A DNA stretch of 63,893 bases, counting the filler, from Hausera hauseri (taxonomy: Eukaryota), in assembly GCA_046269625.1 (NCBI GenBank). It is 12 parts of 12 records of this genome, joined end to end, with 100 filler letters (N's around TTAATTAATTAA, not from the genome) between each part and the next. Parts side by side here need not be neighbours in the genome. Positions count along the whole stretch, not along the records: positions 26,207 to 31,703 come from JBJURY010242071.1; 11 more parts are not named here. One strand, written 5' to 3'. This document shows positions 24,470 to 59,611 of this stretch, in pieces. The number at the start of each line of letters is the position of its first letter. The first letter of the stretch is position 1. Both the position numbers and the translations under genes were made by a program. The notes beneath the pieces were generated by a model, which searched no databases, was not told where the DNA came from, and worked only from the letters and a program-made list of their open reading frames with translations.

Positions 24470-24879
24470 TTTGGATGGACCGAGGCACTGGATCTTTGAT
24501 TTCTTCTGCGTCGATTTTTGGCAGATTTCTGATTTTTCTCGTCTGTTATCTTTGAAGAGTAACCATTAAACCAGAGATTGGGGAATGTTTATATTTGCCG
24601 TCACAAAATCCTGTCTCTGTTTGCATTTTCAAATAACCTTTTCTCATTGTTATTGGTTTAAAACCGTTGTTCGAAAAAAGGAAACCCAGGAAAGCTCGAG
24701 TTAACTTTTGCCAGCAAATCAGAAATTACAATGGATTTCAGAAATAAATAAAAAGTAATATTTATATCAAATTTATGACAGGTTTTGTTTTCGCTTTTTC
24801 TGTAACGAAAATTTCGACAATTTCCGGCGATAAGTAAAAACAAAAAAGTCGCAGCAATAAAAAAGAAAATATCGAATAC

Positions 24880-25402
24880 TTTATGATCGTAACAAACTCG
24901 TTTCCGTTTGACATGAGTGACTTCCGGAGCAGTATAGAAAACCGTGCCGACATTTGCAGACATTTGCCGTCCTATCGGACTCAAAGGCTCATCTATAAAC
25001 AAATTCATTAACCCCCCCCCACAGCACAAATACCGTTGTCCAATGATTTAGCCAATCCAAAATCACCAATTTTCAGTTGAATATTCGAATCGGAATGATA
25101 CAAAAGAAAGAGATTTGCCGGCTAAAAAATCAATCCATTAACACGGAACGACAGATCAGCTTATTGTTACATACCTTCAAATCTCGATGAACAACATTAT
25201 TTGAATGAATGCATTCAACGCCAGCCAGTAATTGTCGTGCAAATGACCTTGTGAACTTATAATCGTCATCAACAAGTGCACCAGAACGATTGTTCCGTTT
25301 CTCTAACCATTCTTTCAATGTCAAATGACAAAGCTCCATTTGAATAAACACACTAAATTTGTCGTTCGGTACTTTTGCCGGAGAATTTTTAGCAAGAATT
25401 TC
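24880..25402 (-). CDS. eIF2-alpha kinase family (HRI/PERK/PKR-like) kinase domain, partial; exons 25402-25175, 25121-25034, 24992-24880
   Basis: FIQMELCHLTLKEWL, HSNNVVHRDLK|PANLF, KIGDFGLA, VGTVFYTAPE, YDHK. GT-AG introns of 53 and 41 nt restore the frame. Confidence 0.85.
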
Positions 25403-26206: not shown

Positions 26207-28330
26207 AGGATATTGAGGAGACACTCATGAGACTGGAACAAGCAGGGTGGAAGTGAAACCAAAAGAAATGGAAAGGGGCACAGAACGCCGTATCATACCT
26301 TGGACACATAGTTGGTGAAGGAGGATAAAAACCGGCAAATCTGCTAAATAAAATATCTGATTGTATGGAACCACAGAATCAAAAACAGGTAAGACATTGG
26401 TTAGGCCTATGTGGATATTACGCCACTTACGTACAAGATAATTCAAAAATTAACGCACCACTATATCGCGTACTCAAAAAAGGAACTAAGTGCAGATGGA
26501 CAGAAGTGAAACAAAAAGCATTCGACGAAATGAAGAAAATTTTGACAAGTGCACCAGTTTTAATATACCCAGATTTTAACCTATCATTCATCATTAAAAC
26601 AGATGCAAGTAAAGAAGGTATAGGGTACGAATTAGCTCAAAAACGCGAAGACGAAGAATTAGAACACCCAATAGCTTACGGTGAACGTTCATTAAAGAAA
26701 GCGGAAAAGAATTATTCGGTTACCGAACTGGAAACGTTAGCAGTCAAAGAAGCACTACGACACTTTAATGTTTATGTCTATGGACAAAAGATTATCATAG
26801 TGACTGATCACAAAGCAGTTACAGCATTGAAAGGACGAGCTAATAACCCAACGTGTAGACTAAACCGTTGGATTGAGGAAATTTTACGATATAACATTGA
26901 ATTTCAATACAAGCCGTGTAACAAACAAGTCGACGCCGATGCACTGTCAAGATTAAAAACAAAAACGAGTGCAATCACCACATTAAAGAGGCCACAACTC
27001 GAACAGCTCACTGAACGACAAAGAACCCTGATATCGGATAAGACAATTAGAATTACAGCTGAGCAAGCTAAAGATATGGTTATTCAGCAAAATATCGAGT
27101 TTTTACGAAACGACAAAATACCAAAAGGACGACAACTGAAAAAGCATCTACAGAAACATGCACATAAATACCATGCATTGAATCTAGATAATATTTTGTA
27201 TTACTAGCGAAAAGGAAGAAGATTAATAGTTATTCCAAAAGGATTGAGAATAGAAGTACTTATGGCCGAGCACAATTCATATTTAGCCGTACATATGTCT
27301 TGGAAGAAGACATTAGAAAGGATATTAAATAAATATTACTGGCCAATTATTTACACCGATGTAAAGAATTGGGTAGGAGCATGTGAAGTCTGTGCAACAA
27401 ACAAAAGAAAACAAAAGGCTACATAGCAGAAATAAAACCCATAAACGTACCAGATAGTCCCATGCAAACTATGTCTGTGGATATAGTAGGACCTTTACCG
27501 AAAACGCACAAAACCAACAGATATATTCTAACATGCGTGGTTTGATTGACGCATTTTGTCGAACTGGTGGCACTATTGGATCAAAAGGTGGAAACCTTAG
27601 CTGACGCAGTAGTGAGAAAAATCATCTGCAGATACGGACCACCAGAAAAAATTTTAATAGATAGAGGAAGGAACTTCACGAGCGAATTAGTCGAAAAAAT
27701 TACCAAGATATTCGAAATTGAACGTTTAACTACTACCGCATACCACCCACAATGTAATGGGATGGTCGAACAAATGAACGCGACAGTTATTCGCATACTA
27801 TCAACAGTAGTGGCAAAAGACCAAAAGGATTGGGATGAATTCCTAGAAGAAATGCAGTTTGCGATTAATACAACTCTACATCCAGAAACAGGATTTACAC
27901 CTTTCTTTATGATGTATGGACGAGAGGCAATCTTACCTACCGATTTAGTCATGACACCCTATGAAAAGAACCTTGAGGATTTAGGGCAAAACTTTGCTGA
28001 ACTCTTGCAGAGAAGATTGCAAAAGTGTTGGGAAGTGGCAAAAACTATCACTAGAATATCAAGAACAATTTAAAAAACAATATGACAAAAAGACTAAACC
28101 TCATGATCTAGAAAAAGGTAATTGGGTTTTTATACATTACCCAGTCGCGAAGAAAGGTACATCTTTGAAATTGACACGTACGGGAAGAGGACCATATGAA
28201 ATTAGCCGTACAACACCAACAACACTTTATGTCAATAAAAAGGGAAAAGCGGAAGTCGTATCAATTCAGAGTAGTTAAAAGCGATATAAGACCAATCAAG
28301 CATTACAACCTAAGACCACGAGAAAATAAA
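26207..28330 (+). pseudogene. Gypsy/Ty3 LTR retrotransposon pol (RT end, RNase H, integrase) with stops and frameshifts
   Basis: YLGH, WLGLCGYY, TDASKEGIG, ELETLAV, TDHKA, ADALSR; HHCC H..H..CEVC; VDIVGP, IDRGRNF, TTAYHPQCNGMVE, TGFTPFFMMYGR, GPY, HYNLRPR. Confidence 0.95.
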
Positions 28331-28339
28331 ACTTTGTCG

Positions 28340-29743
28340 ATTGTCACTAGACCAGTATTTTATCCACAAATAATAGTAGCTTTATCGTTGATTGTCACCT
28401 TAACGCCTAAGTCTAACGCCCAATGGTGGTAGATGAAAATTCGCTGATCGATATATATGGAATCAGGAAAGCAGGATTGAAACCACCGTCACAAAAAAGG
28501 GAACTCCCCAACATAAAACTGAACAAAGGACGAGAAATTTTTACGAGCAATAAAATTAGATTATTTTTCGCCAGAAATCCCATGTGTAGGATTTAAGTTA
28601 TCAGGACCATATGAAGGACAAATCCACATACTATTTCATGACCTAATAAGCCGAGTCGAGTCTGATTGCGAATTCGAACCGGAAGACGATACAGTTTGTT
28701 GCAATGTAAAATATGGGCATTCCTATGCCCTCACCTATCGTGCATATTTACCGAACTGTAATGAAGTACGCTCTGAAATAAATCTGAACTCACACTTAGT
28801 TATACCACAAACGTATGGAGACTACCTCAATATAGACTTAGAGGATATGCTCCAGTCTACTGATTTATTGAAACGGATGTTAGAAGAAAATGTAGCGAGT
28901 GTAATAGAAAATCTAAAAGATTATTGTATCCAAATAAATACAAAGGGACGGTTGATTAAAGGACAAGTAATAACGGTTCAATTATTGAGAGAAGACAAAG
29001 TATTTTATAACCAACAATACTATCAAATCGACACTGAAAGACCGAATAATTGTTGCAAGTTACCTCAGGGACATAAATGTAGAATTCGACTAGATTTATA
29101 TGAAGTTCGACCAAGCCAGTTAAGTATTTTCTTAGGAAGTTATCAATTGAAAATTTTGATTTTTGGAATTCCACCTAAAGCAACAACTAACAGAGTTACG
29201 ACTGCAAAAATGAATAAAACCATTTCAACTTCCACCAAATTCCTACAAACAACGGGAGCACCTCAAGAGGCGCTAGAAACAATTCCCATAAAATATTGGG
29301 CACAACAGTGCGAAATAAACTTCATTGTGGAAGAAACACTTAACTACAACGTAGAAATAAGCTGACTAACATTATACGATAATCAGAAATTAATATTTGT
29401 TAAAGGCAGTCATCGAATCAAATGTGTTGGTTTAAAATCCAAAACAGACTATATAATAAGATGAACGCCAAGAACAAATAAAGTAGAACGTTTACGGTAC
29501 GAACGTTAAATGAGATTGTTTTAACAAAGCCACTAACCAACGAGAAAGCGGACGGAAAAACTGACTAAATGGACAACGTTGTCATTAATATCAATCATTG
29601 GAACGCCAATATTCGCTCTCATAATGATAATTGCGTTTTGTCAATTGATTACCAAAAACTGTTGTATTAAGTGTCATAAAATCACCGAGAGGGAACTAAG
29701 GGTGATGGTACCACAGGATGAAATTAATGACGCAATAACCTGA
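28340..29743 (+). pseudogene. env-position type-I membrane protein (signal peptide, Cys-rich ectodomain, Thr-rich stalk, FN3-like domain, TM helix)
   Basis: PQIIVALSLIVTLTPKSNA signal-like stretch; ORF 28847-29365; VEIS*...GLKSKTDYII; TM TLSLISIIGTPIFALIMIIAFCQLI followed by KNCCIKC; stop at 29741-29743. Confidence 0.65.
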
Positions 29744-29845
29744 CAACTATAGACTGTTTTATTCCACCGTCAAACAAAGAATTGGTTCAAATTTCGAACT
29801 ATACTTTGTTTTAGGATTGACCCTTATTTTGTATTTTCTTTCAGA

Positions 29846-30880
29846 ATGGTAAGTACGAGCAGCCGACTTAGAATCGACGACTTCTTACAAAGATACGAAG
29901 CAGTTCTCATTCCCATATCAGAAGGTATATACCAAAGAATAAATGAAATACCCAACGATTTAAAAGGGACCACCAAAAGGAATCGCACAATTTTGCTATA
30001 CGCAATGCGTGATAACAACCAAGCTAAATCGTATGATCTTAAGGAACTAATCCAGAATACAACGGCCCAACTGGAAGATATATTTATTCATTTGGCCGAC
30101 GGAGAAGTTTACTACAGAATAAAAAACCAGCGATGGGAATGTAACGAAGGGCGCCAATACCGATTTAGCACGTTTAAAATAAGTGAACGAGGCTTAGAAA
30201 CTATTGATTATGAATTAGAATTCAGAATAGCAGCCTTACCGGTTAAACTGATGTTCGAAATGACTTATAAAGAGAGCTGAAACTTAGGCTTGCCAGTTCT
30301 ACAGTTCAAGCAAACTCCAACAGAGGCAGAAAAAGATGAACATTTGCAATCGTATAGGTTAGTCCAAGACTGTCGCAACATAAGGATCCTGGCTACAAAC
30401 TATGGTAGAGGAGACGATGGATATAGAATACCGATCGAGGTATCTATTCGAGAAAGAGATGTAACTGAATTATATTCAACCATTATAAACCCTCGGAAAC
30501 ATGTTCAATAATCACATGCGGAAGTGATTGGTCTAAGGAAAGAACAAGTGATAAATGGAAAAAATATTCTACAGGTCCGCTCAGAGTTAAGCCATTGTCT
30601 TTATGGTTGTATGATTACAGGATACAATGTAAAAAGGGAAATGGAGCTATTAGGGATATCCGATGCAAATTTTGCCGGATTTAGGGAAATAGCTACACAT
30701 CCAGTAGTCCAAGAGCGAATGGAGAAAATCGTACAAGGAAGAAATCGACCAACCGCAACAGAAGCCTTCTTCAAGATAACAGTCGAAGCAATGACCAACA
30801 ACCCAAGTAGAATTCCGAGACTTTTAACAGCCAGCCAGCGTTCCCAATATTTGCAGGAGATTTATAAAATGTTAAAGTAA
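29846..30880 (+). pseudogene. Accessory ORF of about 345 codons (two in-frame stops) with a C-terminal DEDDh exonuclease-like domain lacking catalytic residues
   Basis: ORFs 29846, 30290 and 30524 share one frame. EVSI...LYSTIINP...VIGLRKEQVING....QVRSEL...LYGCMITGYNVKREMELL...FREIA parallels the REX4/ISG20 pattern. Confidence 0.6.
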
Positions 30881-31966
30881 GAACATGAATGGATACCTAA
30901 AGCCCTATTTACAATCTACGCAATTCCTTAGAAACCGAAAACATAGATATCAAATATCGGAAAAACTTCAAGGCCTACTCTCCAATTAGAACCATCCAAT
31001 CTACAGACGAGCATCGCCTTATGATCACAGTCCGCGAAACTATGGAAGGAAAACAGGAAAATGCGATGGAGTTACCGATGATTAAAGAAGGAAACAAAAC
31101 ATTAGCAGGAACACCCAAGTCCCAAAAAGAACAAAAAGAGGAACCTAGGCCAAAAACAATAGTTAAAAAAATGAGGTTAGAAGAGAAACCCCGGCCCAAG
31201 AAGACATAATCCATTTACAACTATCTATTCAAGATGAAAAAGGAAGACAAGAGGCAAGGAGCGGAGAGCCAACAAAACAGGCCAAGCACCTCCCAAAGGA
31301 CAGAACCGTTAAAAAGGGGATTAGGAGTCCCATAATAACGAAAATCAATGTCCTAATAGGGAAAAGGAAAAAAAGACGTATATTACAGAACAATCCAAGA
31401 ATTTTCTAAAATGTTGATAACTACCGAACACTATAGTAAGAAGGAAATAAAAGAAGCTGTTTCTCATAAAGCTTGCCCCAGCAAGAAAAGTCCTGGAGAA
31501 CACCTATGTATGGGAAAATATTAAATTAGGGACTTATCTTACATCGATTTTTCGTTCAAAGAGAACTGGTAAGATAATAGTTCCCGTAGGCAAGCAAATT
31601 CGAACATTACTAAAAAACAATATCAAAAATATAAAACAGAAGGAAAGACCCCCGACTTGGATAAGGATCTTATTGCGGATTGGACCCTGATACAAGTAAA
31701 TTGNNNNNNNNNNNNNNNNNNNNNNNNNNNNNNNNNNNNNNNNNNNNTTAATTAATTAANNNNNNNNNNNNNNNNNNNNNNNNNNNNNNNNNNNNNNNNN
31801 NNNATTAAAAAGGATTGACGATAGAAGATACTCACAGCAAGTTACAGAGGTACACGAAGAGGACCATATTCCAGAGGAGCAGCGGCTATCGACCGACAAA
31901 ATAAGAGTGGGACACAACGAAATCCTAGAGAAACAACGGCCTAAACGATACAGAATTTAAAGTCGT

Positions 31967-34036: not shown

Positions 34037-34476
34037 ATTGTTGTAAGTGACAAAGAAAGCGATAGTTTTTGGCAACAAAAAGATTATAAAACATTCTCAC
34101 CAGATGTCGAATTTCAGAATGCAGATTATAATTCAGTGCCACCTATTACTGAACCAAATGTTCAGTCTGCTATTTGTGTTCCTAAAGATGGCCAATCTAT
34201 TCGAAATGAAGGCACGTTGAATGTTAAAGGGTAATGGATTAAAAGTAATTTCGATATACAGCAAAATGCTTTTGAGACAAAAATATTGAAACTTATTTAA
34301 AAGGTATGCGTGGAGCGGCGGTGGCAGAGGAATTATTCGTGTTGAAATTTCTACTGATAATGGAAACACTTGGCGTTTGGCCAATATCACTCATTCGAAA
34401 GATATTCCAACAAGCAGTCATATAAACAGAAAACAATGGACATGGGTGCTATGGGATATCGATATTCCTGTTAATG
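34037..34476 (+). CDS. SUOX: Sulfite oxidase, two internal exons (34037-34230, 34304-34476)
   Basis: SFWQQKDYKTFSPDV...PITEPNVQSAIC...VKG|YAWSGGGRGIIRVEISTDNGNTW...WTWVLW; a 73-nt GT-AG intron keeps the frame. Confidence 0.88.
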
Positions 34477-35399
34477 GTAACATCTTTGAAAAAATATTAA
34501 ATCAAAAATTTGTGACAATTTTTAATTATTTTTGTAAAAATGTTATCTAAATATCAGACATTGTAAAGATGCAATTGCTGTTTTATAATTCCTATGAAAT
34601 AGCAAGAACAATCTAGAAAAATTTTAATAACTTTTAATAAAATTTTAATTTCAAAATTCCTCTCTAAGTAAAGAGGAAATTGAAAAAGTGCGAAATAACG
34701 CAACACTTGGAAGTCAATCCTAGATTTGCTTCCAATTTTTTCCCATATTATTATTGATAAGGTACACTATTTTACTTCTAAATGCAGATGTTGATGAAAT
34801 TCGATATAGTAAGATAATTTTGTTCATTGAATTCAAGTATGTAAATTATTTTTGCTTTTATCTAGAAATTTGGAAGTTTTGTATAATAATTTTTGTATTA
34901 TAGGTACTTCTTGCATAAGTGATTCCCCAATTTGAAATCAAAATATATACGAAATTACGGTGTTTTGTTTACTAAACTAATGAGTGTATCAAGACCAGAT
35001 ATTACACACAGTATTACACAAGCTGTTTTATATTTTGAAAGTACTTTTATTCGATGGCACAAGAATTTCTGTTTTGATATTTAAACAAGTGCATATCGGG
35101 TCCAAATGGTGAAACTTGAAAATCAAAAATCTGACTGCTACGAATGTTTTGTATGTGTACAGAGTTGAAATGTAAAATATTTTTGAATTTCGTCTGCACA
35201 ATTTAAAGTTGAAGCGAAAAATGTTCTAGTAATTTATTACTCTGTACAGTTCAACGTTTTTTAAATGGATTTTTATATTTTTCATCAAAACAATTTATGT
35301 TAAATTAAAACACTAATTCAAATAATGAATTATAACAACAATTTAATCTCAAATTTATTTAAACACAAAACATTTTTACATTTTGTTTGTTTTAATGCA

Positions 35400-37629: not shown

Positions 37630-38542
37630 TTAGCATTCTTCACATTTTCCAATTACATCCACTTCTTTTGATGGAACCGGAACCGTGAAATGATGTTGAA
37701 TATATCGTTTTGTCTTCTTCATACCTAGATGGCATAGATCCACATGTATCTTCCGGATGAAGTCCTTGCGCATATTTTTTGGAACAACTGGTAGTCTGTG
37801 GTATAGATCTTTACATACAAGGAAACCGTCTGTCATTTCCAATTTGTCGATCATATTGAGAATCTCCTTCGAGAGTTGTACCTTTTTCACCGTCGAACCG
37901 TCTAATCGACATTTTACTTGTTGTATTTCTGTACATTTTTCCTTTTCGTCTTTTATCCATTGCAAGGTTGACCTGACCACTAAGGAATTAATGTGCTTTA
38001 TACGTGCCTTTGTTTGTTTCGGATCAGCATTTGTTGTTTGACACTGAACACACATATCCTTATACAACCATTACAATCATTTTGCATTTCCATGCTGTTT
38101 CCCTTCCTATATTCTAGTGTAAAATTAAAATCTGTCATGCTTTCTAGCCACGTCTGAAATTGCGGTGTTATTGGCTTGGCAGCGGTCTTCATATATACTA
38201 GCGCCTTATGATCTGTTCTAGCCGTGAAGTGGTTACCATACAGATACTGTTTAAAATGCAGTATAAACTCTTGCAATGCCAACAGTTCCTTTCTTGTAAC
38301 GCAGTACCCTTTCTCAAAAGATGAGAGTGTTCTAGACGCATACGCTACTACCTTTTCTTCATTTTCTATTTGCTCTGATTCTTGGATCTATGAGAGTTAA
38401 TACTAGCGCTTCACATAGTTTTAATTTCAATAGCTTTAAATTTTCCTCACGCTCTTTTAACCAAACCAACTTCCTACAAGTCCTCATGCAAGCCTGCCTA
38501 ATTCTTTATAAACATTCTGTAATAGTTGGCCAGACCTAAAAA
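37630..38542 (-). pseudogene. Gypsy pol fragment (RNase H and integrase zinc-binding domain)
   Basis: VVAYASRTLS..EKGYCVTRKELLAL, HFKQYLYG, RTDHKAL, HVDLCHLG...CEEC. Confidence 0.9.
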
Positions 38543-38642
38543 NNNNNNNNNNNNNNNNNNNNNNNNNNNNNNNNNNNNNNNNNNNNTTAATTAATTAANN
38601 NNNNNNNNNNNNNNNNNNNNNNNNNNNNNNNNNNNNNNNNNN

Positions 38643-41600
38643 ATCCATATGCTGTGCCAACTTAGCAAAGTCCTCATAAATGTCCTCAGTATGGATCTGA
38701 TAGATGAAACTATCAGTATACATGCACATCAGCTGTATGGACTTGAATGTGGGGACCATTATATCGTAATGGAATTTATACATCGGGGTCTTTGACAGGT
38801 TGAGGATTACCATACCCACATATATGGGCTTGTTGAATTTCAAGGATGCTTTCAGCATATAGATGCTGACCAAGTTCTCCGCATATATGGTGCTGGTGTA
38901 GAAGTTGGGCTTGGCAATGAGCTTCTTTGCCCGCTTCCACTCAGACACCAGTTCGATATTGATCCTGTTGCGGATATTTTTCTTGGTCTTGCCAAAAACG
39001 CTGTTGTTGTATAGCTTGAATTGATCCTTCTCAAAATCGTTCTTGGCATTAATCCGCAGCTTCGTATTGAGGTCTATGTAGGGCTGCAGTCAATTGGACT
39101 GGCTGAACTGCACGACTCTATAGATCTTAGTAATGCGGAGTCCATTTCTGACCGCCTGTTAGAGATTTATTTAGTGGACTACATATTTTTCCCGATTTCC
39201 ATGAAAACATAGTAACTTTTCTAATCCCCCATTCGGTGGTCTTTTGCTCTCAGAAAGGAAAGGCAGCTGCTCATGCATTGTGTGGATAGAAGTCGGATGT
39301 TCCATGTCCACGTCCAGTATGTATCCCGTATCTCTACTGGGATCCACGTCCAGTATAGAGATGTTTATAGATGCTCTACCCACTTGAAGTTATCATGTGG
39401 CAATGGGACGCTCATTGCCCAACCATATAAGTTGTTGGCATCCAGCTGTGATATATATGGGGATTCATTGGATTGATCACACTGGGTCATATACTTGTTG
39501 CTGGCCTCGCTATACCGGTGGATGGCCTGGCATATTCCGCCTCTAATGCATCTCTCAATCATGAGGATCATGTCGTAATCCTTTATGATCTGCAGCCTAA
39601 TATCTGTATATATCAGCATAGCTGCTCAACTCATCCTTCGAGCTGTAAAGAAATAAGCCGGATCTGATGCATGGCTCTTCATTATAATATCCCTGAAACT
39701 CTCAAAGACATCCGTTAGAAGCAGCACGTCCGTTTTGATGCATATGTTGCTGTATTCCCCTAATGCTCGGCACTGGAATGCATCCCAGACGTTCTGAGCA
39801 TGCTTGTATTCAGCATTACTGATATTGCAATCAGAGAGGCTATTGTAAAAGTTCTTCTTGGCCGGCAATGGGGTCTCATGCAATGTTTTCCATGAGGTTA
39901 TGTAGTCATAGGGAAATACCCCTTTCCTCTTGACGAGGTCAAATGCAGTGGAAAAGAACCGCTTCGTCTCCTTGAGTTCTTCTGCAAGGAGGTTCTTCAC
40001 TAAATTATCAAGTGAAGACGACATGAAACGGAAACTGTCTATGAAGCGAAGCCTAATTTTATCAACATGCTTTGTAAAGGTGATGTATTTATCCTCACTA
40101 TTAGAAATTACCTCAATGTTTCCTTGAATGCTGACCAGTTCCTGAGCAATAAAATGGGAATCATAGCCACTGAGATTATGGAACACTACAGGCACATATG
40201 TACATGTTTTGCAACGCAGATTGCAGTTGTTGCATGCCGCGCCTCGATATTTGCCTGTAAAATGACAATGATCCCTGAATTTATGATTCTCCTTAGTGAA
40301 TGATTTGGAACACAAATAATATGCTGTTGCCTTGCGCCATTCTTCTTGCTCCTTCGACATGCTTATTGTATACTTATGTTGCTGCAATATATCGCCAAGC
40401 CTATGAGTCATATCTTCAAGTCGTTTAATGAAATGTGCTGCTGCGCCTGGACCTCTGAATAGATATGGTTCACTGTCCAGTCCTTTGGCATACATGTAAT
40501 ATGATGAAAGCTTATGATATTGCTATGCCGTTGTGCTACTGTGTTGTGGATTAGGATTGAAACTCTGAACTGGACGCAGAGTAGCCTCAAATTCGCAATA
40601 GATAACTACTGGGACCTTGATCTTCTTTTTGAACTCCTTGAATTCAATGTAGTCTTCAATAGGAAATTCTGGCCTGATATAGTAATTGTTCTTGCAGTAT
40701 ATTTTGTGCTCTGCAAGGTTGTCCACGGCCTCATCGCCACTGAAATTGAAAAATCATCGTTTGCATATTTCGATTCTTGTGTGTGTTTCGTAATTTGAAA
40801 TCTTACTAGACGCTCAAAGTTCTTAATCCAAGCATAATGTTTCTTTTCTCCATCGTCTAGTAGGAGCAGACCCCTGTGATCTTCAAATTCAGTATCGTAT
40901 ATCTGCAGGGAATAGAATTTGTCCTCTTCATCCAATCCAATGATTTTGATGGATATATTGTTGATTTGACTGAACTTCTTGACTTCATCTATGGATGGCG
41001 GGAACTTAATACATTGGAAGTCATAGTTGTGTTACACATCCTTATATAGCCAAACTCGTGAAGCATTATGTTGATCCCGTACGAGTTTTGATAGAATGGC
41101 ATACATGAAACACATGATGTCATCATTAAAGATATTGATGCATGCCTTTTTCCTTACGATCCATTCCGGAAGCTGAATATAGGAACTGCCCCGCATTGGG
41201 AGTACTTGTGCACATACACAAGCAATCCCTTGATGGCTTCCAGAGTCAATCTGCTCTTTTTATCCTGGCTCTCCTCGGCTTCACGGATCAGCTTCTCGTG
41301 CGCCTCTATCCATTCTGCTATATTGATCTTTTCCAATATGGATCTATTTGTGGTCTTCAAGACCCTATTGGATTCTTCGCCATCAACATTGATGTATGTG
41401 GCCTCCAGTTTCATATTCACCTTAAGGGCTTTGTCCTGTTGTTGTCCTGAAGAATCCCCTTTATCTCGTCCTTTGTGCATAAGAGAAAGTCTTGGATGGT
41501 TGTTTGACCAGTTGCATCAATAACATATCTGCGACATTTTCTCTTTAATGTTGCCGCATCAACTGGCCGCTGTCTTTGGATTTTTGATGGAGCCGGTGCG

Positions 41601-42240: not shown

Positions 42241-43703
42241 GTGTTTCTGCGCCATGCTAAATTTGTAGAAGTTGCAAATCTAAGCAAACCCATTATTTGA
42301 GGAGCACAAATAACAAAACTCACCATTCTTGGAAGTGAATTTGGAAATAATGAAATATGTAGCCATATCAAGGTGCACTGTCTATTTTTATTGATTTTTA
42401 TTTTAATTTTGATAAATGACGCAGTAATACAAAACAAACGTAGTGAAAAATAAATAATTTTAATAGTAGAGTAAATTTGGCACTGTATATTGTTGCCAAC
42501 ATGTTGCACTTGTATCGTCAACATAGTGCATTTGTACATTTGTTTTAATGCATCACTTGCATGAACTTGTCACGTAATTTGATTAATTTAAACAAAACTC
42601 AAGATAAACCTTACTCACATGCATGAATCCGTGATTATGCTATTTGTATTGCCATCGTATTTCATTTGTCTTGTCAACGAGTTGCATTTGTGTATTTGTT
42701 TTAATGCATCATTTGTACATTTGTTTTAATGCACCAAATAAATTAAATGCACGTGGGCGCCTATGTCGATTAGGTTTTCGACCATGAGGAATTGAATGAC
42801 CTCATTAGATTCTGCGAATAATGCATGCTTGACCGAGTTTTCCAGTTAGAATAGCTAAATATTCGACTTTTAGGCTCGAATTCAAATATCTGGCGTCATA
42901 TTCCTATTTACTATGCATGTCTTCCTATCCATGTGTGCTATTATATTTATCAATTTCCACTTCACTGGGCTTTAACTGCAGATTTTGCTTAATTCGAAAT
43001 ATTATTTTTATATCTATATAGCACATTTTCATGGAATAAATTTAATGAAGAAATGGGTTTTCACACATGGGGAATTTAATTCCATTGTCAGATTTTTCGA
43101 AAAGTTCGATATTCGAAGGGGGACTTTTCGAATTTCGAATATTCGACTCGATATTCGACATCTCCATACTCGACTTCCTATCTGTCCCCACTCAATGCTA
43201 TATCGAATTTTGCTTCCTTAGAGCAAATAAAACCTGTGGCGGTTCTGGCTCACTTGCACTTTGGGCTGATATTATTCGAAATCCACTCGATCGATTTAAA
43301 TTCTAATTGCACATTCGTATAGTGCACGTGTTTCCTCTNNNNNNNNNNNNNNNNNNNNNNNNNNNNNNNNNNNNNNNNNNNNTTAATTAATTAANNNNNN
43401 NNNNNNNNNNNNNNNNNNNNNNNNNNNNNNNNNNNNNNAATGCACGAAAACTTAGATATATTTAGGGGATTTAGATTATTTTTGTCTACTTTTTGGGATA
43501 AATAGTGGAAACTTAGATTATTGTAGGAGACGTATGGGATTTACAATGGTTTTAGGATTAATTCACCCTTTCTTTTTAATGCAACAACATGTTACCGCCG
43601 GTATTTAGGCAAGATTTAGGTATAAATAGCCGTTCATCGAAGTAAATATATTTCATTTTGGACATGAACTTTAATCTACGTTTAGATCAGAATTACTGCT
43701 GCA

Positions 43704-44753
43704 ATGGAAACACTTCTCTCTCCGATGTATCGGGATCCTCAACATCCTGCCAGTTTTGGTGGTATCAATGCTTTGCATCGTGCTTTAAAAGGTCGCGTAA
43801 AAACAAAAGACATCAAACGATGGTTGCAAACGAAAGATTCGTATACTTTACACAAGCCTTTAAAACACAAATTCCCGAGAAATCGTGTGATCGTAGGAGG
43901 TTTGAACAATCAATTTCAGTCTGATTTAGTAGATATGCAGTCTTTATCTGCTTTTAACGACGATTATAAGTATTTACTCACGTGCATAGATATTCTGTCC
44001 AAGTACGCATGGGCCGTACCCTTAAAAGATAAGAAATATGACGGCGTTGTCATGGCTTTTGAAAAAATATTTTCGGAAAGAAAGCCTCAATCTTTACAGA
44101 CGGATGCTGGAAAAGAATTTACCAACAGACGTTTACAAAATTATCTGAAAAAAAGAAATGTACACTTTTTTACGACTCATAATGCAACGAAGGCTTCCGT
44201 CGTCGAACGATTTAATCGTACTCTTAAAACGAAAATGTGGAAATATTTTACAGAAATGAATACAAAACGTTACATTGATGTGATTGATAAACTGGTCTAT
44301 AGTTACAATCATACATGGCATCGTAGTATAAAAATGGAACCTGCTTCGGTGACAGTCAAAAACGAAGCCCAAGTTTGGCAAACGCTGTACGGTCATCCGA
44401 ATGAAAAGAAGGTCAATGCCAATACTTTAAAACTTGAAGATACAGTGCGCATCAGCAAAGAAAAATTGCGTTTTGAAAAAGGGTATGAGCAAAATTGGAC
44501 CAGAGAAATATTTACCGTTTATAAAATTATTGCCAGGAATCCCGTTGTGTACAAACTAAAAGATTTAGCGGGTGAAGTAATTGAAGGTACTTTTTATAAT
44601 CAAGAACTTCAAAAAGTTGCCGATTCAGGGTATTATCCGGTCGAAAAGGTACTGAAAACCAGAAAAAGGAACGGAAAATCAGAATATTTTGTTAAATTTC
44701 AAGGTTATCCCGAAAAGTTTAATGCATGGGTAAGTAGTGTGAAAAGGATATAA
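43704..44753 (+). CDS. Retroviral-like (rve) integrase with C-terminal chromodomain
   Basis: FQSDLVD, QTDAGKEF and VVERFNRTLK give an intact DDE; FEKGYEQNWT; chromodomain YPVEKVLKTR...YFVKFQGYPEKFNAWV. Confidence 0.96.
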   Translation: METLLSPMYRDPQHPASFGGINALHRALKGRVKTKDIKRWLQTKDSYTLHKPLKHKFPRNRVIVGGLNNQFQSDLVDMQSLSAFNDDYKYLLTCIDILSKYAWAVPLKDKKYDGVVMAFEKIFSERKPQSLQTDAGKEFTNRRLQNYLKKRNVHFFTTHNATKASVVERFNRTLKTKMWKYFTEMNTKRYIDVIDKLVYSYNHTWHRSIKMEPASVTVKNEAQVWQTLYGHPNEKKVNANTLKLEDTVRISKEKLRFEKGYEQNWTREIFTVYKIIARNPVVYKLKDLAGEVIEGTFYNQELQKVADSGYYPVEKVLKTRKRNGKSEYFVKFQGYPEKFNAWVSSVKRI

Positions 44754-44791
44754 AAAGGCATACGAAGCAGACATTGTAACCAGATACGAAG

Positions 44792-45517
44792 ATGTCTTTC
44801 TACGTGACGGTTATCAGCGACAGTTCCAAACAGTTTTTTCCCGACAATACCACGTCACAATTTATTACTCAGTTACCAACGCCTATTGACTTAAACAATG
44901 GACAATGGGAAGTGAGCTTAGTCAATATTATTTACCCTCATACATGGTATAATGTTAGGAAAGAAAACAACCTCTTTGGATTTGACCTAGGGGATGGAAA
45001 AGAAAACGGTCGTCGAATCCCACCCGGTTGTTATGAAAGTATACCCGATCTGTTGAAAGCTATGACTTTATCCTCCCACAAGAACAAAATTGAATTTTCT
45101 TACCACGCCGTAACCAAGAGAGTAGCGATCAAGACAAAAGACGATTGCAAAGTGATGCTTTACGACGGCATTGCACAGGTGTTAGGATTCCAGCCTGGAG
45201 TGTACAGCGGAATTGCACAAAGTCCTTTTGTGGCGGATCCGAATGGTTCTTTCTCCGTGATGTATGTCTATTGCGACCTCGTGGAACCTCAAATCGTGGG
45301 AGATGTTCAAGCCCCCCTTTTAAAAATTGTCAAAGTGGATGGAAAAGATGGCGAAACGGTGAACGTTCAGTATACTCGGCCTTACTATCTACCGGTAATA
45401 CGACAACATTTTCAGACCATTCAAATAGATTTGCGACTGCACACGGGTGGCCTGGTGCCTTTTGAAAGAGGTAAAGTCATTATTGTATTGCATTTTCGCA
45501 TGAGACAAATTGTATAA
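44792..45517 (+). CDS. Minor capsid (penton-like) protein
   Basis: FYVTVISDSS..FPDNT..F...LP..I.L...WEV.L, YVYCDLVEPQIVGD, PYYLPV, VLHFR. Confidence 0.9.
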   Translation: MSFYVTVISDSSKQFFPDNTTSQFITQLPTPIDLNNGQWEVSLVNIIYPHTWYNVRKENNLFGFDLGDGKENGRRIPPGCYESIPDLLKAMTLSSHKNKIEFSYHAVTKRVAIKTKDDCKVMLYDGIAQVLGFQPGVYSGIAQSPFVADPNGSFSVMYVYCDLVEPQIVGDVQAPLLKIVKVDGKDGETVNVQYTRPYYLPVIRQHFQTIQIDLRLHTGGLVPFERGKVIIVLHFRMRQIV

Positions 45518-45567
45518 ATAGCAAAAAACAAGAGGACAGGTTTTTATTTGTATCATAGTCCTGAAAC

Positions 45568-45987
45568 ATGTTGGTACCTTATTCGTGCTGTACAGAAACA
45601 TTTGAAGATTATTATGTGGGGCAGACTGGAGACGGTTTGCCCTTTTATGAAGGAACGTCCTTACAGCGAGGATACGGCATTGGGGGATTTTTTGCAAAAC
45701 TTTTCCGAAGTGCGCTGCCTTTTTTAAGAAAGGGTGCAAAAGCATTAGGGAAAGAAGCCCTGCGTACCGGTACGCTCATAGCGAACGACGTACTCGAAGG
45801 AGAAAATTTGAAAACATCTGCCTTATCAAGAATGAAAGAAGCTGGCAAGACCTTGACCCGGAAAGCACTGAAGAGAGCTGACGAGATGATTGGACACGGA
45901 AGACTTAAAAGGAAGCGCAAAAAAACTGAACTGCTCATTTCACCGAAAACCAAGAAGCGGAAAGGACGTGATATTTTTGACCCGTAA
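45568..45987 (+). CDS. Maverick PM core-like protein
   Basis: YYVGQTGDG, QRGYGIGGFFAKLFRSALPFL amphipathic helix, basic tail ending DIF. Confidence 0.85.
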   Translation: MLVPYSCCTETFEDYYVGQTGDGLPFYEGTSLQRGYGIGGFFAKLFRSALPFLRKGAKALGKEALRTGTLIANDVLEGENLKTSALSRMKEAGKTLTRKALKRADEMIGHGRLKRKRKKTELLISPKTKKRKGRDIFDP

Positions 45988-45989
45988 CT

Positions 45990-47288
45990 ATGGCGTATTT
46001 GTTTAAAGATTCTCCAGAATGTGCCAAATCTGAATTAAATCTGTTTACATTACCTCCCACGCAAACGGTTATTGAAAGAGGACAATGGATCGAATTTCAC
46101 CCCGTAGCTAATTTATTGGATTCTAACCCTGTCGAATTTAATATTTCGGGAAGCGGTGAAGATTATTTGGACTTATCACAAACTTATTTGTATGTGAAAG
46201 CCAAGATACTGAAAGGAAATGGAAACCCGTTGACCAAAGAGGACAAAGTCGGACCTTCCAATCTGTTTCTGCATGCTCTTTTCTCTCAAGTGGATGTCAG
46301 TCTTAACGAGCGAGTCGTTTCCTCCAGCACTAATACCTATCCTTATCGGGCCATGATTGAAACTTTGCTAAATCATGGACATGATGCCAAAACATCGCAA
46401 CTGTCTTCAGAGTTGTATTTCAAAGATACGGCAGGACGCATGAATGTATATGATGCGGCAGATCCTAAACCTAACGAAGGTTTTAACATTCGAGCCAACA
46501 TGTTTCAACTCAGTCGCCCAGTGGACATGTTCGGCCGGCTCCATGTCGATTTATTTCATCAAGAAAGACTCATGCTGAACATGGTGGATATGAAAATTAA
46601 GCTTATACGAAGCAAACCTGAGTTTTGCTTGTTGGGCGATGGTTCCTTTAAAGTGGCATTGGAACATGCTTCTTTATTTGCACGCAGAGTGAAGGTCAGC
46701 CCTGGAGTGGTATTAGCACATGCCAAATGTTTGGAAAAAACCTCTGCTAAATACCCTATTAACAGAGTGGTCTGCAAATCCTATTCCGTACCTCAAGGTC
46801 ATATGAGTTTTATCCAAGATAACATTTTCACGGGGCAGATGCCCAAACGTCTGGTCTTAGCCTGTGTCGACAACGACGCATTCAACGGAAACTTTAAAAA
46901 GTCGCCTTTTGAATTTAAGCACTGTCACATGAACTTTATCGGTGTCTACGTGGATGGTCAACCTTTGCCCCATAAACCCTTGCAACCTGATTTTGAAAAC
47001 CAGAATTTTATTAGAGCCTATCACAACTTATTCCTAAACTCACAAGACCGTGGACTTTATCTCTCTCGATCAGAGTTTCCTGAAGGCTATTGCTTATTTC
47101 ACTTTGATTTGTCACCGGATCTGTGTGACGGAGCACATTTAAATTTGGTTCGTCATAGTAATTTAAGATTAGAACTCAAGTTCAGTTCACCCTTAGAACA
47201 TACTATATCTTTATTAGTGTATGCTGAATTTGAGAATGTGATCGAAGTCAACAAATCTAGGAACATTTTATACGACTTTGGAAACTAA
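45990..47288 (+). CDS. Major capsid protein (double jelly-roll, PY)
   Basis: KSELNLFTLPPTQ, YLDLSQTYLYVK, YPYRAMIETLL, AFNG.FKKSPF.F, FDLSPD, VYAEF; 432 aa. Confidence 0.95.
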   Translation: MAYLFKDSPECAKSELNLFTLPPTQTVIERGQWIEFHPVANLLDSNPVEFNISGSGEDYLDLSQTYLYVKAKILKGNGNPLTKEDKVGPSNLFLHALFSQVDVSLNERVVSSSTNTYPYRAMIETLLNHGHDAKTSQLSSELYFKDTAGRMNVYDAADPKPNEGFNIRANMFQLSRPVDMFGRLHVDLFHQERLMLNMVDMKIKLIRSKPEFCLLGDGSFKVALEHASLFARRVKVSPGVVLAHAKCLEKTSAKYPINRVVCKSYSVPQGHMSFIQDNIFTGQMPKRLVLACVDNDAFNGNFKKSPFEFKHCHMNFIGVYVDGQPLPHKPLQPDFENQNFIRAYHNLFLNSQDRGLYLSRSEFPEGYCLFHFDLSPDLCDGAHLNLVRHSNLRLELKFSSPLEHTISLLVYAEFENVIEVNKSRNILYDFGN

Positions 47289-47755
47289 TGAATTCTTCAG
47301 ACATTCATAAAATACTCACACGTGATCCCTATACGGTGAGATATTTTACAGGTGTCTATCCCTCTGACAGAATACCCGTCCTCCATTCCACCCCTGCAGC
47401 TCTCGTGGTTAACACGGATAAGGCTACTGAACCCGGAAGTCACTGGGTTGCCCTGTTTGTGGAAAATAACAGATCTCTGGACTTCTTCGATTCTTATGGA
47501 TTACCAGCTGAAGCATATGGTAGTGACATAGCAAAATTCATCCAGAAATACCCTCAAGTCACGTGGAACAAGATACCCCTTCAAAGCCTTACTTCGAATG
47601 TCTGCGGACACTACTGTATCTATTATTTAGTGAAACGATGTCAAGGCTTCTGTACAAGATTCATTGTAGCTAACCTTGCTGGAAAGCAGAATGATTTTCG
47701 TATGTTTCAATTTGTAAAGAAACGATATGGTGTAAACATGATTTATAAAAAATAA
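47288..47755 (+). CDS. Adenain-like (Ulp1-fold) maturation cysteine protease
   Basis: VVNTD..EPGSHWVA, FFDSYG, LQS..SNVCGHYC; the His-Asp-Cys triad is intact. Confidence 0.95.
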   Translation: MNSSDIHKILTRDPYTVRYFTGVYPSDRIPVLHSTPAALVVNTDKATEPGSHWVALFVENNRSLDFFDSYGLPAEAYGSDIAKFIQKYPQVTWNKIPLQSLTSNVCGHYCIYYLVKRCQGFCTRFIVANLAGKQNDFRMFQFVKKRYGVNMIYKK

Positions 47756-47844
47756 ACTAACGTTTTTTAATAATAACTGTGTCTGTTTTCCTTTGTGTTT
47801 CATTGTATTTTTACATATTTGGAAAGTGTAAGAGCCTATCTTTA

Positions 47845-48431
47845 TCCTAACTCAAAGGCGAAACATCAGTGTTTTCGCCTAACTCAAAGGCATAAAAAAC
47901 ACCCATGTTTCGCCTAACTGAAAGGAATTAAAACGCCGAAAAACTCCCTTAACTAAAAGGGAGAAAATATCTATACTTTATCCTAACTAAATAGGGAAAA
48001 GTACCTAGGTTTCGCCTAAGACAAAAGGCGAAAAAACGCTTATGAGTAACTTAACTAAAAGGGAGAAAATATCTATAATTTAGTCTAACTAAAAGGGATA
48101 AAATATCTATAATTTTGTCTAACTAAAAGGGAAAAATACCTATACTTCATCCTAACACTAAAGGGGGGAAAGTACCTAGGTTTCTCCTAAGACAAGAGGC
48201 GAAAAACGCCTATACTCTATCCTAACTAAAAGGGGGAAAAGTACATAGGTTTCGCCTAACTAAAAGACGAAAAACGTCTATAATTTATCCTAACTAAAAG
48301 GCGAAAAACGCCTATGTTTAACATTACTGTAAAGGGGAAAAACATCTACGATTAACCTGAACATAAAGGGGAAAAGTACCTAGGTTTTGTCTAACTGAAA
48401 GGGAGAAAATGCCTATATTTTAACTAAAAGG
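47845..48431. repeat. Array of about 18 imperfect palindromic units of about 34 bp between convergent gene blocks
   Basis: Core (C)CTAACTAAAAGG recurs at about 47849, 47881, 47916, 47951, 47984, 48018, 48053, 48087, 48121, 48154, 48189, 48224, 48258, 48292, 48325, 48360, 48393 and 48422. Confidence 0.9.
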
Positions 48432-48584
48432 ATAATGTGATGAATGAATATAAAGGGAAAAATTTGCACAGAGTAGGAAAACAAATATATTTTTTAAAAC
48501 ATACAAAAATAAAAAAAGACTCGAACAAAAAACATAAAAGACACAGGAATTAAAGGACAAACATATTTTTTATTGAATGTAGTA

Positions 48585-49211
48585 TTACAGTTTTAACCAA
48601 CGGTTAGGTTGAGTTCGTACACGTTTGGGTCTTTCAGATTGATATTTTACAGAACTGCGTTTTACAGAGTACGGTTTTACAGAATTGGGTTTGGCGTACA
48701 GTTTACTTGTAGAAGTAAGGTGTCTGTTCTTGACATATTCTGGAGGAAAATGCAGTTCATCTAATGCTTGTTTCCATTCATCATAACCTTGAGGTTTCCC
48801 TTGCTGGTTTCGAAGTATATAGTTGATTAAAGTAGATATGTTTGTTCCAGATAGAATGCTTCCTTTCACTTTAATCTCTTTGGAAGCTGTCCAGGAAATG
48901 ACGTCTTTATGCCGATTCAAAAAATCAAGTATCTTCTGGGCAACATATCGCCATTTAACAGGTACAGAAGACAGAATGTCTTGTTCGACATTCGCTTGAA
49001 TAAGATTATTTTCTTCGGAAGGCTTATTTAAATCGGGAAAAGCTACGAACTTTTGTAAGGTTTGTAGATACAATTTCGCCTTTTCATCATCACTGGATTT
49101 TTTTTCCTTTAAAATATCCTGCATCTGGCTATCCAGTTCCGATAAATGGTCTTCGGTAAATTGCTGTTCTCGATCCGCAGGTACAAGAATTAATTTACGG
49201 GCGAACTCCAT
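48585..49211 (-). CDS. Maverick PZ protein
   Basis: MEFARKLILVP, LDSQM..IL....DDEKAKLY.Q.L, ISW...EI...G..L.GTNI..LI, terminal WLKL. Confidence 0.8.
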   Translation of the reverse strand: MEFARKLILVPADREQQFTEDHLSELDSQMQDILKEKKSSDDEKAKLYLQTLQKFVAFPDLNKPSEENNLIQANVEQDILSSVPVKWRYVAQKILDFLNRHKDVISWTASKEIKVKGSILSGTNISTLINYILRNQQGKPQGYDEWKQALDELHFPPEYVKNRHLTSTSKLYAKPNSVKPYSVKRSSVKYQSERPKRVRTQPNRWLKL

Positions 49212-49512
49212 GAATCAGTGTGCTTAGTACAGAAATCGCAGCAGGAATAAGAATGGACAGAAAACCTTCACCTTTTTGTACAAGAAGCTGTCTTTTCTTA
49301 AATAAGGGCGTCTTTTTCTTGGCTAGTTGACGTAAAGTCTTTTTATGGTGAGCAAGTTGGTTCTTTTCTTCTGAGGTTAATGGTACGTTTCCTTTTAGCA
49401 CATTCAAAACACATTCACACACACTCTTAATAACACTGTTAGGACACCACCTCAATAAAGAAATTTTGTTCTTACAGTTTTCTAAAAGTTTTAGATGTTC
49501 TTCAGTCGACAT
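49195..49512 (-). CDS. Maverick PW protein
   Basis: VCECVLNVLKGNVPL...LRQLAKKK...LVQKGEGFLSILIPAAISVL. Confidence 0.82.
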   Translation of the reverse strand: MSTEEHLKLLENCKNKISLLRWCPNSVIKSVCECVLNVLKGNVPLTSEEKNQLAHHKKTLRQLAKKKTPLFKKRQLLVQKGEGFLSILIPAAISVLSTLIHGVRP

Positions 49513-49533
49513 CTTAACTGATAATGATCAATA

Positions 49534-50040
49534 TCAATTTTCAGTCCTGTCTTTTATAAAGGTTCCGAAGGCAATTGCTTTCACCAAAGCACAATGTTGA
49601 AAGTCTGGCGTATGACGAGGACAATTTGAAGGTGGACTGTTCAAACTGGTTATTTTAGGACAATTAAAGTCATTCAGGTTAAGTATTTTTCGGCCCGATA
49701 GCTTCTCTAAAAATTTTGCCTTTTCTAAGCCTTTCACGTAAATATCCTTATAAAAAGCAAACAAAAATGTTAATACAAGCGGTAAAGATAAGTAAGATAA
49801 TTCTCCACTTTCCCAAGGCAATCTGTGACAATGACGAATAAGCCAGGAATAGTTTCTTTTGCGTTTAGCGGACAGCTCTTCCCATGGGTACGGCGGAAGA
49901 AAGGTCCAGCGACCGTGATATTTATGATTCACGTCAAAAAAGGCAAGTTCTTTGATAATAAAAGTATGAGGTTGTACCTGAAAACCTTCAAATTCTACGA
50001 CGACAGCAGACATGTTGCTCGTTTCGCGAGAAAACATCAA
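49534..50040 (-). CDS. DEDD/DnaQ-like exonuclease-fold protein with a C-terminal Cys/His cluster
   Basis: VVVEFEGF...FIIKELA, PPYPW, H.LPWESG, IYVKGLEK..FL, CP...C..H.....HCA. Confidence 0.6.
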   Translation of the reverse strand: MMFSRETSNMSAVVVEFEGFQVQPHTFIIKELAFFDVNHKYHGRWTFLPPYPWEELSAKRKRNYSWLIRHCHRLPWESGELSYLSLPLVLTFLFAFYKDIYVKGLEKAKFLEKLSGRKILNLNDFNCPKITSLNSPPSNCPRHTPDFQHCALVKAIAFGTFIKDRTEN

Positions 50041-50044
50041 ATGG

Positions 50045-50437
50045 CTATCGAGGTTCGTACACGTAATGTTTATCTTCTGGAAAAATTCCTGTGCGCATGC
50101 GTAAACCTTCGTCTGTTTCAGGACGTAAATCTATCAGCAAGTAGCCATATGTAGGCGTCGTCGCGTTTTGAAATATTTCTTGAAAAGCTCTTGTTTTTCC
50201 TGGAAATATTTGTCTTGACAAATGCATTATTTGACTTTTGTCCCTAGGGTTTTTGTACAATACTAAATATTGCGTATTTAAGTGTATAGTTCGCATTTCT
50301 TTTCCTTGATGAAATAGATTTTGTACTATAAAAATAACAGAAATATTTCTGTGATGACTACCTTTCGTGAATAATTTGCTTAAACGCGTGTCTTCACCTA
50401 ATTCACTCATAAGATCATCCAGTATAATGAGTGCATC
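50045..50437 (-). CDS. DNA packaging ATPase, C-terminal part (5' end cut by the contig end)
   Basis: LIILDDLMSE (Walker B), FTKGSHHRNISVIFIVQNLF, KNPRD, YGYLLIDL, RMRTGIFP. Confidence 0.93.
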   Translation of the reverse strand, partial: DALIILDDLMSELGEDTRLSKLFTKGSHHRNISVIFIVQNLFHQGKEMRTIHLNTQYLVLYKNPRDKSQIMHLSRQIFPGKTRAFQEIFQNATTPTYGYLLIDLRPETDEGLRMRTGIFPEDKHYVYEPR

Positions 50438-59111: not shown

Positions 59112-59611
59112 NNNNNNNNNNNNNNNNNNNNNNNNNNNNNNNNNNNNNNNNNNNNTTAATTAATTAANNNNNNNNNNNNNNNNNNNNNNNNNNNNNNNNN
59201 NNNNNNNNNNNATCTGAATTGAAGAATGCATATGGCCGTGGCTACATCTCTTTTCAAATTCCGGTTATTAAGTTGCCCACCCAATATATAACGAATTACA
59301 TTCGGCATGTAAATTTTCAATCAAATCCATACTCATTTTATACTACCTCGTTTAACATGTGCCCGTTGGTACTCATCTCATTATCACTATCAATAAAATT
59401 CACCGCATGCCATATTCTATCAAATATCCATGGAAATACAAATAAGACGCCAATTTCTGAACTGAATCCACACCAACGCATAAGTATCACACATACTTTG
59501 ATTCAAAAATTGGCTAATTTTGTCTAAAATAACATACTATATTGCATCATTGCGGTCAATTGCACATACACTTCATTTCTTATATAAACCATGATCGGCC
59601 AATTTTGCCAG

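Follow-up and report, generated by a model that had tools for sequence, protein, structure and literature searches.

Genes for DnaQ-fold accessory proteins are known from LTR elements in the form of the intact DEDDy ORFs of rotifers. In bdelloids, the LTR retrotransposons Juno and Vesta as well as the Athena/Terminon elements carry a DEDDy exonuclease as ORF3 (PMC5408684), and DEDDy ORFs in rotifer LTR elements are also cited in further studies (PMC6431247; PMC6338049). DEDDh enzymes of vertebrate hosts have been described to restrict retroelements (PMC10123124), and nucleic acid binding has been reported for DEDD pseudonucleases, namely for Maelstrom (PMC4408791) as well as for PXL and Exuperantia (PMC13659232). 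In the literature covered, which comprised few subscription papers, no LTR element was described to carry a DEDDh gene that is dead or joined to a RING; the main text of a survey of Gypsy elements with envelope genes, published in 2026, contains neither the word "exonuclease" nor "DEDD" (PMC13524379). Only few accessory genes of LTR retrotransposons have a known job, and the evasion of host silencing is an open question.

Here, we analyzed a window of 63,893 nucleotides (filler included) from the genome of Hausera hauseri (assembly GCA_046269625.1), one contig of which carries a gene of this kind downstream of a broken pol. This gene is very probably a conserved pseudonuclease accessory gene of a multi-copy Ty3/Gypsy family.

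The retroelement contig and its surroundings

Linkers of the form N-TTAATTAATTAA-N separate the 12 contigs that make up the window, so that genes on separate contigs are not neighbours. The accessory gene is located on the contig at 26207-31703, which starts inside the RT and ends inside the accessory gene itself (Table 1). For the RT-RNase H part, the best PDB match was Ty3 Gag-Pol (E 3.9e-33). Both the order RT-RNase H-integrase and the Ty3-like sequence place the element among Ty3/Gypsy elements (Metaviridae), and the Gypsy assignment made in an earlier sequence-only reading of this DNA is borne out by the Pfam matches (RT_RNaseH_2, Integrase_H2C2, rve) as well as by the PDB match. The integrase is disrupted by stops and frameshifts, and every gene of the contig is broken by one or the other. 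A repeat search of this contig revealed no LTR-like repeat, in agreement with the reading, which had noted that no 3′ LTR is visible; its remark on an A-rich make-up similar to that of the upstream pol also holds (38% A in the accessory ORF, 39-41% in pol). No second copy of the accessory gene is present within the window.

Table 1. Features of the contig at 26207-31703 (window coordinates).
Feature	Position	Strand	Basis
RT 3′ end and RNase H, Ty3/Gypsy pol, broken	26218..27207	+	Pfam RT_RNaseH_2 E 1.4e-34; frame map
Integrase (H2C2 zinc domain, core, C-terminal part)	27208..28278	+	Pfam Integrase_H2C2 E 1.4e-18, rve E 5.7e-6, MLVIN_C E 0.014
Env-position ORF, in pieces	28320..29743 (start approximate)	+	hydropathy
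Splice-acceptor-like site, pyrimidine tract to TTTCAG at 29844	29820..29845	+	pyrimidine count
Accessory gene, N-terminal domain, residues 1-169 (break 30278-30280)	29846..30352	+	conserved in P0123, P0124, P0125
Accessory gene, DEDDh (REX4/ISG20/SDN-type) exonuclease domain (breaks 30509-30511 and 30878-30880)	30356..30880	+	profile matches
Accessory gene, continuation in shifted frames	30881..31703	+	tblastn of P0123

According to hydropathy, the env-position ORF has a hydrophobic signal-like start, a Cys-rich middle and a transmembrane stretch at about 29585-29641, with ten cysteines in its largest piece, and it is predicted to encode a type I membrane protein. No significant match to an envelope family, a PDB entry or an atlas protein was obtained for this ORF. 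Thus, the signal-like and transmembrane stretches agree with the "env" gene of the reading, whereas the missing envelope-family match does not, and the label is therefore used here in a positional sense only. The ATG of the accessory gene is found one base 3′ of an acceptor-like TTTCAG, the sole one on the contig, which with 17 pyrimidines in 20 positions is the best of the contig's 399 AG sites. This arrangement suggests that the accessory protein may be made from a spliced subgenomic mRNA via the acceptor at 29844. A donor-like GTAAGT directly follows the ATG (29846-29855) and the second-best acceptor of the contig is located at 29814; judged from these signals, alternative splicing of a very short exon near 29846-29855 is possible.

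Elsewhere in the window, a Polinton/Maverick-like cluster (43686-50437) contains an integrase with chromodomain, an adenain-like protease and further ORFs that we take to be capsid-like and ATPase-like. Two stretches with PolB/endonuclease VII pieces (1827-3922 and 38595-41031) are 75-86% alike. Within the Polinton cluster, an ORF on the minus strand (49537-50130) appears DEDD/Maelstrom-like by eye owing to an acidic strand at its N-terminus and Cys/His close to its end; it received no Pfam or PDB support as a nuclease and was rejected as kin of the accessory gene, to which it is unrelated. Another Gypsy-type RNase H, unrelated and present as a fragment, is located at 37630-38387 (minus strand) and has no DNA similarity to the element on the contig at 26207-31703. 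Host-type genes are represented by a P5A ATPase (59595-61431), a sulfite-oxidase-like gene (34037-34550) and a protein kinase (24658-25402). Among the matches listed for the P5A ATPase exon, P0005 shares 77% identity with it, whereas the others, nearly all of them animal, reach 64% at most; this points to an invertebrate animal on a long branch.

The accessory gene and its relatives

An HMMER search of 1.84 billion representatives returned five proteins. The closest, P0123, is an uninterrupted protein of 870 aa with 44% identity to the window protein (E 6e-75), followed by P0124 (333 aa, cut short, 40% identity, E 4e-50) and P0125 (516 aa, 25% identity, E 1e-6). The other two are RNase_T proteins (E 6e-4), one of them in a cluster named RNA exonuclease 4-like. 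The P0127 cluster (Bombyx RNA exonuclease 4-like) and P0126, which has four RNase_T repeats, are REX4-like proteins that lack several catalytic residues, indicating that dead REX4 paralogues also occur among insect genes.

In the window, positions 29846-30880 form a single plus-strand frame that is interrupted by stops at 30278-30280 and 30509-30511. The claim of the reading that three ORFs represent one frame broken by two stops is therefore correct, and the motifs quoted there are present in this frame. The 3′ end that it had placed at 30880 had to be revised, however, as P0123 aligns in frame over all three stops to 30904 and then in shifted frames to 31698 (tblastn), five bases short of the contig end. 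Since the P0123 alignment runs across 30878 and the codon at this position differs among sister contigs, the stop codon at 30878-30880 has to be counted as a third break, and the gene proper is multidomain. Its continuation comprises a basic low-complexity linker and, at 31390-31698, a conserved domain corresponding to residues 598-699 of P0123, which gave local matches to the window in two frames (E 2e-8 and 3e-7).

P0123 additionally contains a C3HC4 RING at residues 746-791 (30.8 bits, with a Pfam cut-off of 21). It is the only one of four relatives examined to do so; P0125 and the metagenomic L070 protein (516 and 550 aa) end without a RING. The contig ends about 47 residues before the RING start in the P0123 alignment, and by comparison with P0123 a RING is likely for the window gene. 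Read in this way, the gene would comprise the N-terminal domain, the dead DEDDh domain, the basic linker, the further conserved domain and likely a RING. On another contig of the window, 15012-15137 matches the P0123 RING weakly (E 0.009) and probably belongs to an unrelated RING gene. For the N-terminal domain, no significant match was obtained in Pfam, NCBIfam, PHROG or PDB, and among the 1.84 billion representatives searched with HMMER nothing outside its own family matched; a match to a potyvirus coat protein was rejected as weak (E 0.34).

The search for further relatives was extended to metagenomes by means of the family profile, which yielded three loci (L070, L071 and L072) among 132 candidate stretches. 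L072, bacterial-looking and 59 residues long, was dropped as a false match. L070 and L071 share 82-84% protein identity with P0125/P0128 and are A-rich (38-39% A) and intronless. L070 (1-5089) carries an ORF of 504 aa with signal and transmembrane stretches, two related coiled-coil ORFs and then a gene of 550 aa with the catalytic residues D/E/E/H/D. There is no pol gene on its contig, and the L070 and window membrane-protein ORFs have no detectable similarity (best E 0.088), so that a retroelement origin of L070 is suggested by its layout, which resembles that of the window. By eye, a strand motif that is presumably fibronectin type III-like is seen in both membrane-protein ORFs (window 29400-29461, L070 about 930-1000); neither ORF has a Pfam fn3 match. 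Among 5.8 billion proteins, a word-seeded search confined to near lengths (874 candidates) and shorter ones (55 candidates) yielded no relative, the 870 aa of P0123 lying outside the range covered. No locus was obtained either when viral and metagenome contigs were scanned with this one protein or with RT/RNase H.

The DEDDh domain, its active site and the sister copies

For searches with the DEDDh domain of the window, break positions were read as X. Alone, this domain obtained three PDB matches, all of them DEDDh (SDN1, E 0.004; PolC exonuclease, E 0.03; ISG20L2, E 1.7), and four of its five NCBIfam matches were DnaQ-type; the window protein had no Pfam match to RNase_T. As the main evidence for DEDDh homology we regard a profile built from the window protein, P0123, P0124 and P0125, all four of which share the N-terminal domain; part of its strength is supplied by P0125. 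Its five PDB matches are all DEDDh, namely SDN1 (E 6e-10), ISG20L2 (E 1e-9), PolC (E 3e-7), ISG20 (E 2e-6) and DnaQ (E 6e-4), which is in line with the REX4/ISG20-like DEDDh domain proposed in the reading. A single-sequence fold model of the window protein reached a pLDDT of 34.5. In a guided model, DEDD matches made up 16 of the top 17 rows (best Z 7.5), but this model was built from DnaQ rows over the core only, so that these matches are circular and were not counted as support; its C-terminal 72 residues, for which there is no alignment, were unmatched (pLDDT 50-67). The score of the ORF with a phage DnaQ profile (24.5 bits, at most 6.2 in 1000 shuffles; 46 distinct sequences, 69 loci) is partly circular as well, since the profile seed came from a weak match to the query. 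Phage tblastn matches were rejected, all having E values of 3-8 (32 records; of 30 listed, 21 are annotated as epsilon, DNA polymerase or DinG). Atlas matches of P0123 residues 55-420, all below 0.9 and treated as leads only, included RNase_T clusters and an arenavirus nucleoprotein.

The reference enzyme for the active site, SDN1, requires Asp144, Glu146, Asp228, His278 and Asp283, with the loss of any one of them abolishing activity (PMC6123492). In our alignment, the five corresponding sites read D, E, E, H, D in P0125/P0128, A, N, E, L, R in the window protein and A, N, M, L, C in P0123. The ExoI residues of the window protein, A183 and N185, are likewise Ala and Asn in P0124, which is cut off before ExoII; E265 aligns with Asp228 of SDN1, and L327 and R332 take the place of the ExoIII His and Asp. 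Alignments with bacterial DnaQ proteins alone do not fix the ExoI and ExoIII registers. However, the motif-bearing P0125/P0128 align at A183/N185 and L327/R332, showing that the register of the reading was right and that DxE indeed reads ATN and HxxxxD reads LxxxxR. Independently of the register, a DxE is missing from residues 165-200 of the window protein, and a His from everything beyond residue 285. The statement that all catalytic positions are lost stands for four sites (A183, N185, L327, R332) and not for the fifth: since the ExoII Glu is common to P0125, a relative that keeps the other four residues, four sites are lost and not five.

As sister copies, contigs of one public sequencing run (X1) were used. 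In total, 2801 X1 contigs with 80-100% identity fell on 28200-31703 and covered 30 of 30 bins, and 3% of the sister contigs in this region run on into unlike sequence; the element is a dispersed multi-copy family. Over 30272-30884, 787 sister contigs revealed 48 places at which 35% or more of the depth deviates from the window copy (40 of them listed). According to the listed differences and a tally of the kinds of change at the other eight, no canonical residue can be reached at the five sites, with the caveat that, in some of the copies, position 185 could be turned acidic by one unlisted difference; restoring all five canonical sites would need nine base changes in 15. The active-site substitutions, whose fixation the reading had proposed to check, are thus shared by the sister contigs. 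No length differences at 35% or more of the depth occur in 613 bases of sister contigs, and only the window copy has the stop at 30509, where 98% of the depth (30 contigs) differs.

Classification was possible for 38 of the 48 places, the eight unlisted ones and two in the stop codon being left out. Among the differences of intermediate share, 14 of 27 are synonymous, with 22-29% expected (p 0.0006-0.012, omega 0.26-0.39), whereas the near-fixed differences private to the window copy include three synonymous ones out of 11 (omega 0.75-1.1); the contrast between the two groups is not significant (Fisher p 0.28). These values are to be read with the depth-weighted contigs as a rough stand-in for copies and contig depth not being a phylogeny. 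The variation among sister copies suggests purifying selection with an omega of about 0.3. The dN/dS below 1 that the reading had named as a check is suggested by the intermediate-share differences; the window-private ones look neutral. The stronger argument is the same dead site in the uninterrupted P0123. Its presence in the sister copies, P0123 and P0124 favors a pseudonuclease over random decay, as had been proposed.

Possible roles and comparison with known elements

By analogy with characterized pseudonucleases, the accessory protein may act as an RNA-binding adaptor that recruits a ubiquitin ligase to proteins of host restriction or silencing, a tentative reading to which we give a little less than an even chance. 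The pseudonuclease would have derived from an active element-borne nuclease, and the dead DEDDh domain would still grip RNA in the manner of Maelstrom, Exuperantia and PXL. The window-family protein would end in a RING as in P0123, and this RING would ubiquitinate host restriction or silencing proteins gathered on the RNA of the element. More speculative, and on balance rather unlikely, is the wider scenario in which an invertebrate Gypsy lineage captured a REX4/ISG20-type exonuclease that stayed active in one branch and became a dead-nuclease/RING fusion in the other, yielding a counter-defence ubiquitin ligase that homes on RNA and destroys host anti-transposon proteins. The family offers a natural pair in this respect: on one side a nuclease with an intact-looking site (P0125, L070), on the other a dead form that has been retained over 40-55% divergence and, in the best-preserved relative, P0123, is fused to a RING. 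Should the RING form indeed degrade a protein of the host defence, the retrotransposon would encode a ligase for counter-defence, comparable to the counter-defence genes of complex retroviruses.

Alternatively, the dead-nuclease gene could serve the element's own RNA by 3′-end shielding, export or packaging, similar to Rev or CERV and with no host target. Such a role would fit the substrate-side core (residues 202-269), which is the best conserved part, the splice acceptor-like site before the ORF and the precedent of C. elegans Cer1, whose spliced accessory mRNA encodes a protein needed for export of the genomic RNA (PMC10309623). It leaves the RING of P0123 unexplained, though, and we consider it unlikely. 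The DEDDh domain might also have given up nucleic acid altogether and act as a protein-interaction or dimerization module in imitation of a host REX4/ISG20-like protein. Both dead lineages carry substitutions at four metal or base ligands, and in the guided model the C-terminal 72 residues are not docked as a normal ExoIII helix; yet this model is weak in precisely that part, and the characterized DEDD pseudonucleases do bind nucleic acid (PMC4408791; PMC13659232), which makes a pure protein module distinctly improbable.

That the gene is a captured passenger, such as a retrocopy of a host REX4-like gene that does nothing for the element and whose residue losses are plain decay, appears very unlikely. 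In favor of it, the window copy itself is dead, the differences private to this copy look neutral, no LTR bounds are visible, and beyond the window no single contig links pol to the gene. Against this, the same dead site occurs in P0123 and P0124, sister variation is biased to synonymous sites, the sister contigs tile the whole of 28200-31703 and 3% of them run on into unlike sequence, and the N-terminal domain has no match outside its own family. The least probable reading, to which we attach hardly any weight, is a still-active exonuclease with a rewired site made up of residues such as D175, E265 and an acidic residue 318. E265 is indeed kept and common to the intact-looking relative, and one DnaQ alignment puts the ExoIII Asp at 318, where the majority variant, at about 70% of the sister depth, would be acidic. 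In the family alignment, however, residue 318 precedes the ExoIII motif, which is set at 327/332, positions 318 and 265 are Ala and Met in P0123, and the absence of DxE and His described above also speaks against such an enzyme.

Among the known systems, the planarian Burro giant Gypsy elements also carry accessory motifs linked to ubiquitination, which are located mostly inside a very large ORF1 polyprotein, with no DEDD domain named in the part of the source consulted (PMC6431247). CERV of C. elegans Cer1 is likewise an LTR retrotransposon accessory protein from a spliced mRNA, splicing being suggested for the window gene by its acceptor-like site; for CERV a function in RNA export has been shown, and no nuclease fold is reported in the text available (PMC10309623). 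Similar to the cellular enzymes SDN1, ISG20, ISG20L2 and REX4, the window protein has profile homology from ExoI to ExoII, and its ExoIII spacing matches through P0125. In contrast to these enzymes, four of its five catalytic residues are gone, its flanking domains are different ones and it is encoded on a mobile element. PML also has a RING. A DEDD fold without active site, as predicted for the window protein, is also that of Maelstrom, Exuperantia and the PXL of PML-1, PXL being a dead DEDDh domain in PML (PMC4408791; PMC13659232). The three are host genes, several of which act against mobile elements.

The closest counterpart is rotifer ORF3, which is also a DnaQ-fold 3′-5′ exonuclease gene downstream of pol and the motif of which reads DEED, P0125 and L070 likewise having Glu at ExoII (PMC5408684). 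An affinity to the rotifer-type DEDDy enzymes of the RNase D/Rrp6/WRN group was not found, as all five profile matches are DEDDh and the motif-bearing relative has His-x4-Asp. While ORF3 is a DEDDy (RNase D-like) gene with intact catalytic residues in the place of env, the window gene is DEDDh and dead, follows a membrane-protein gene and possesses an N-terminal domain of its own, and its relative P0123 ends in a RING.
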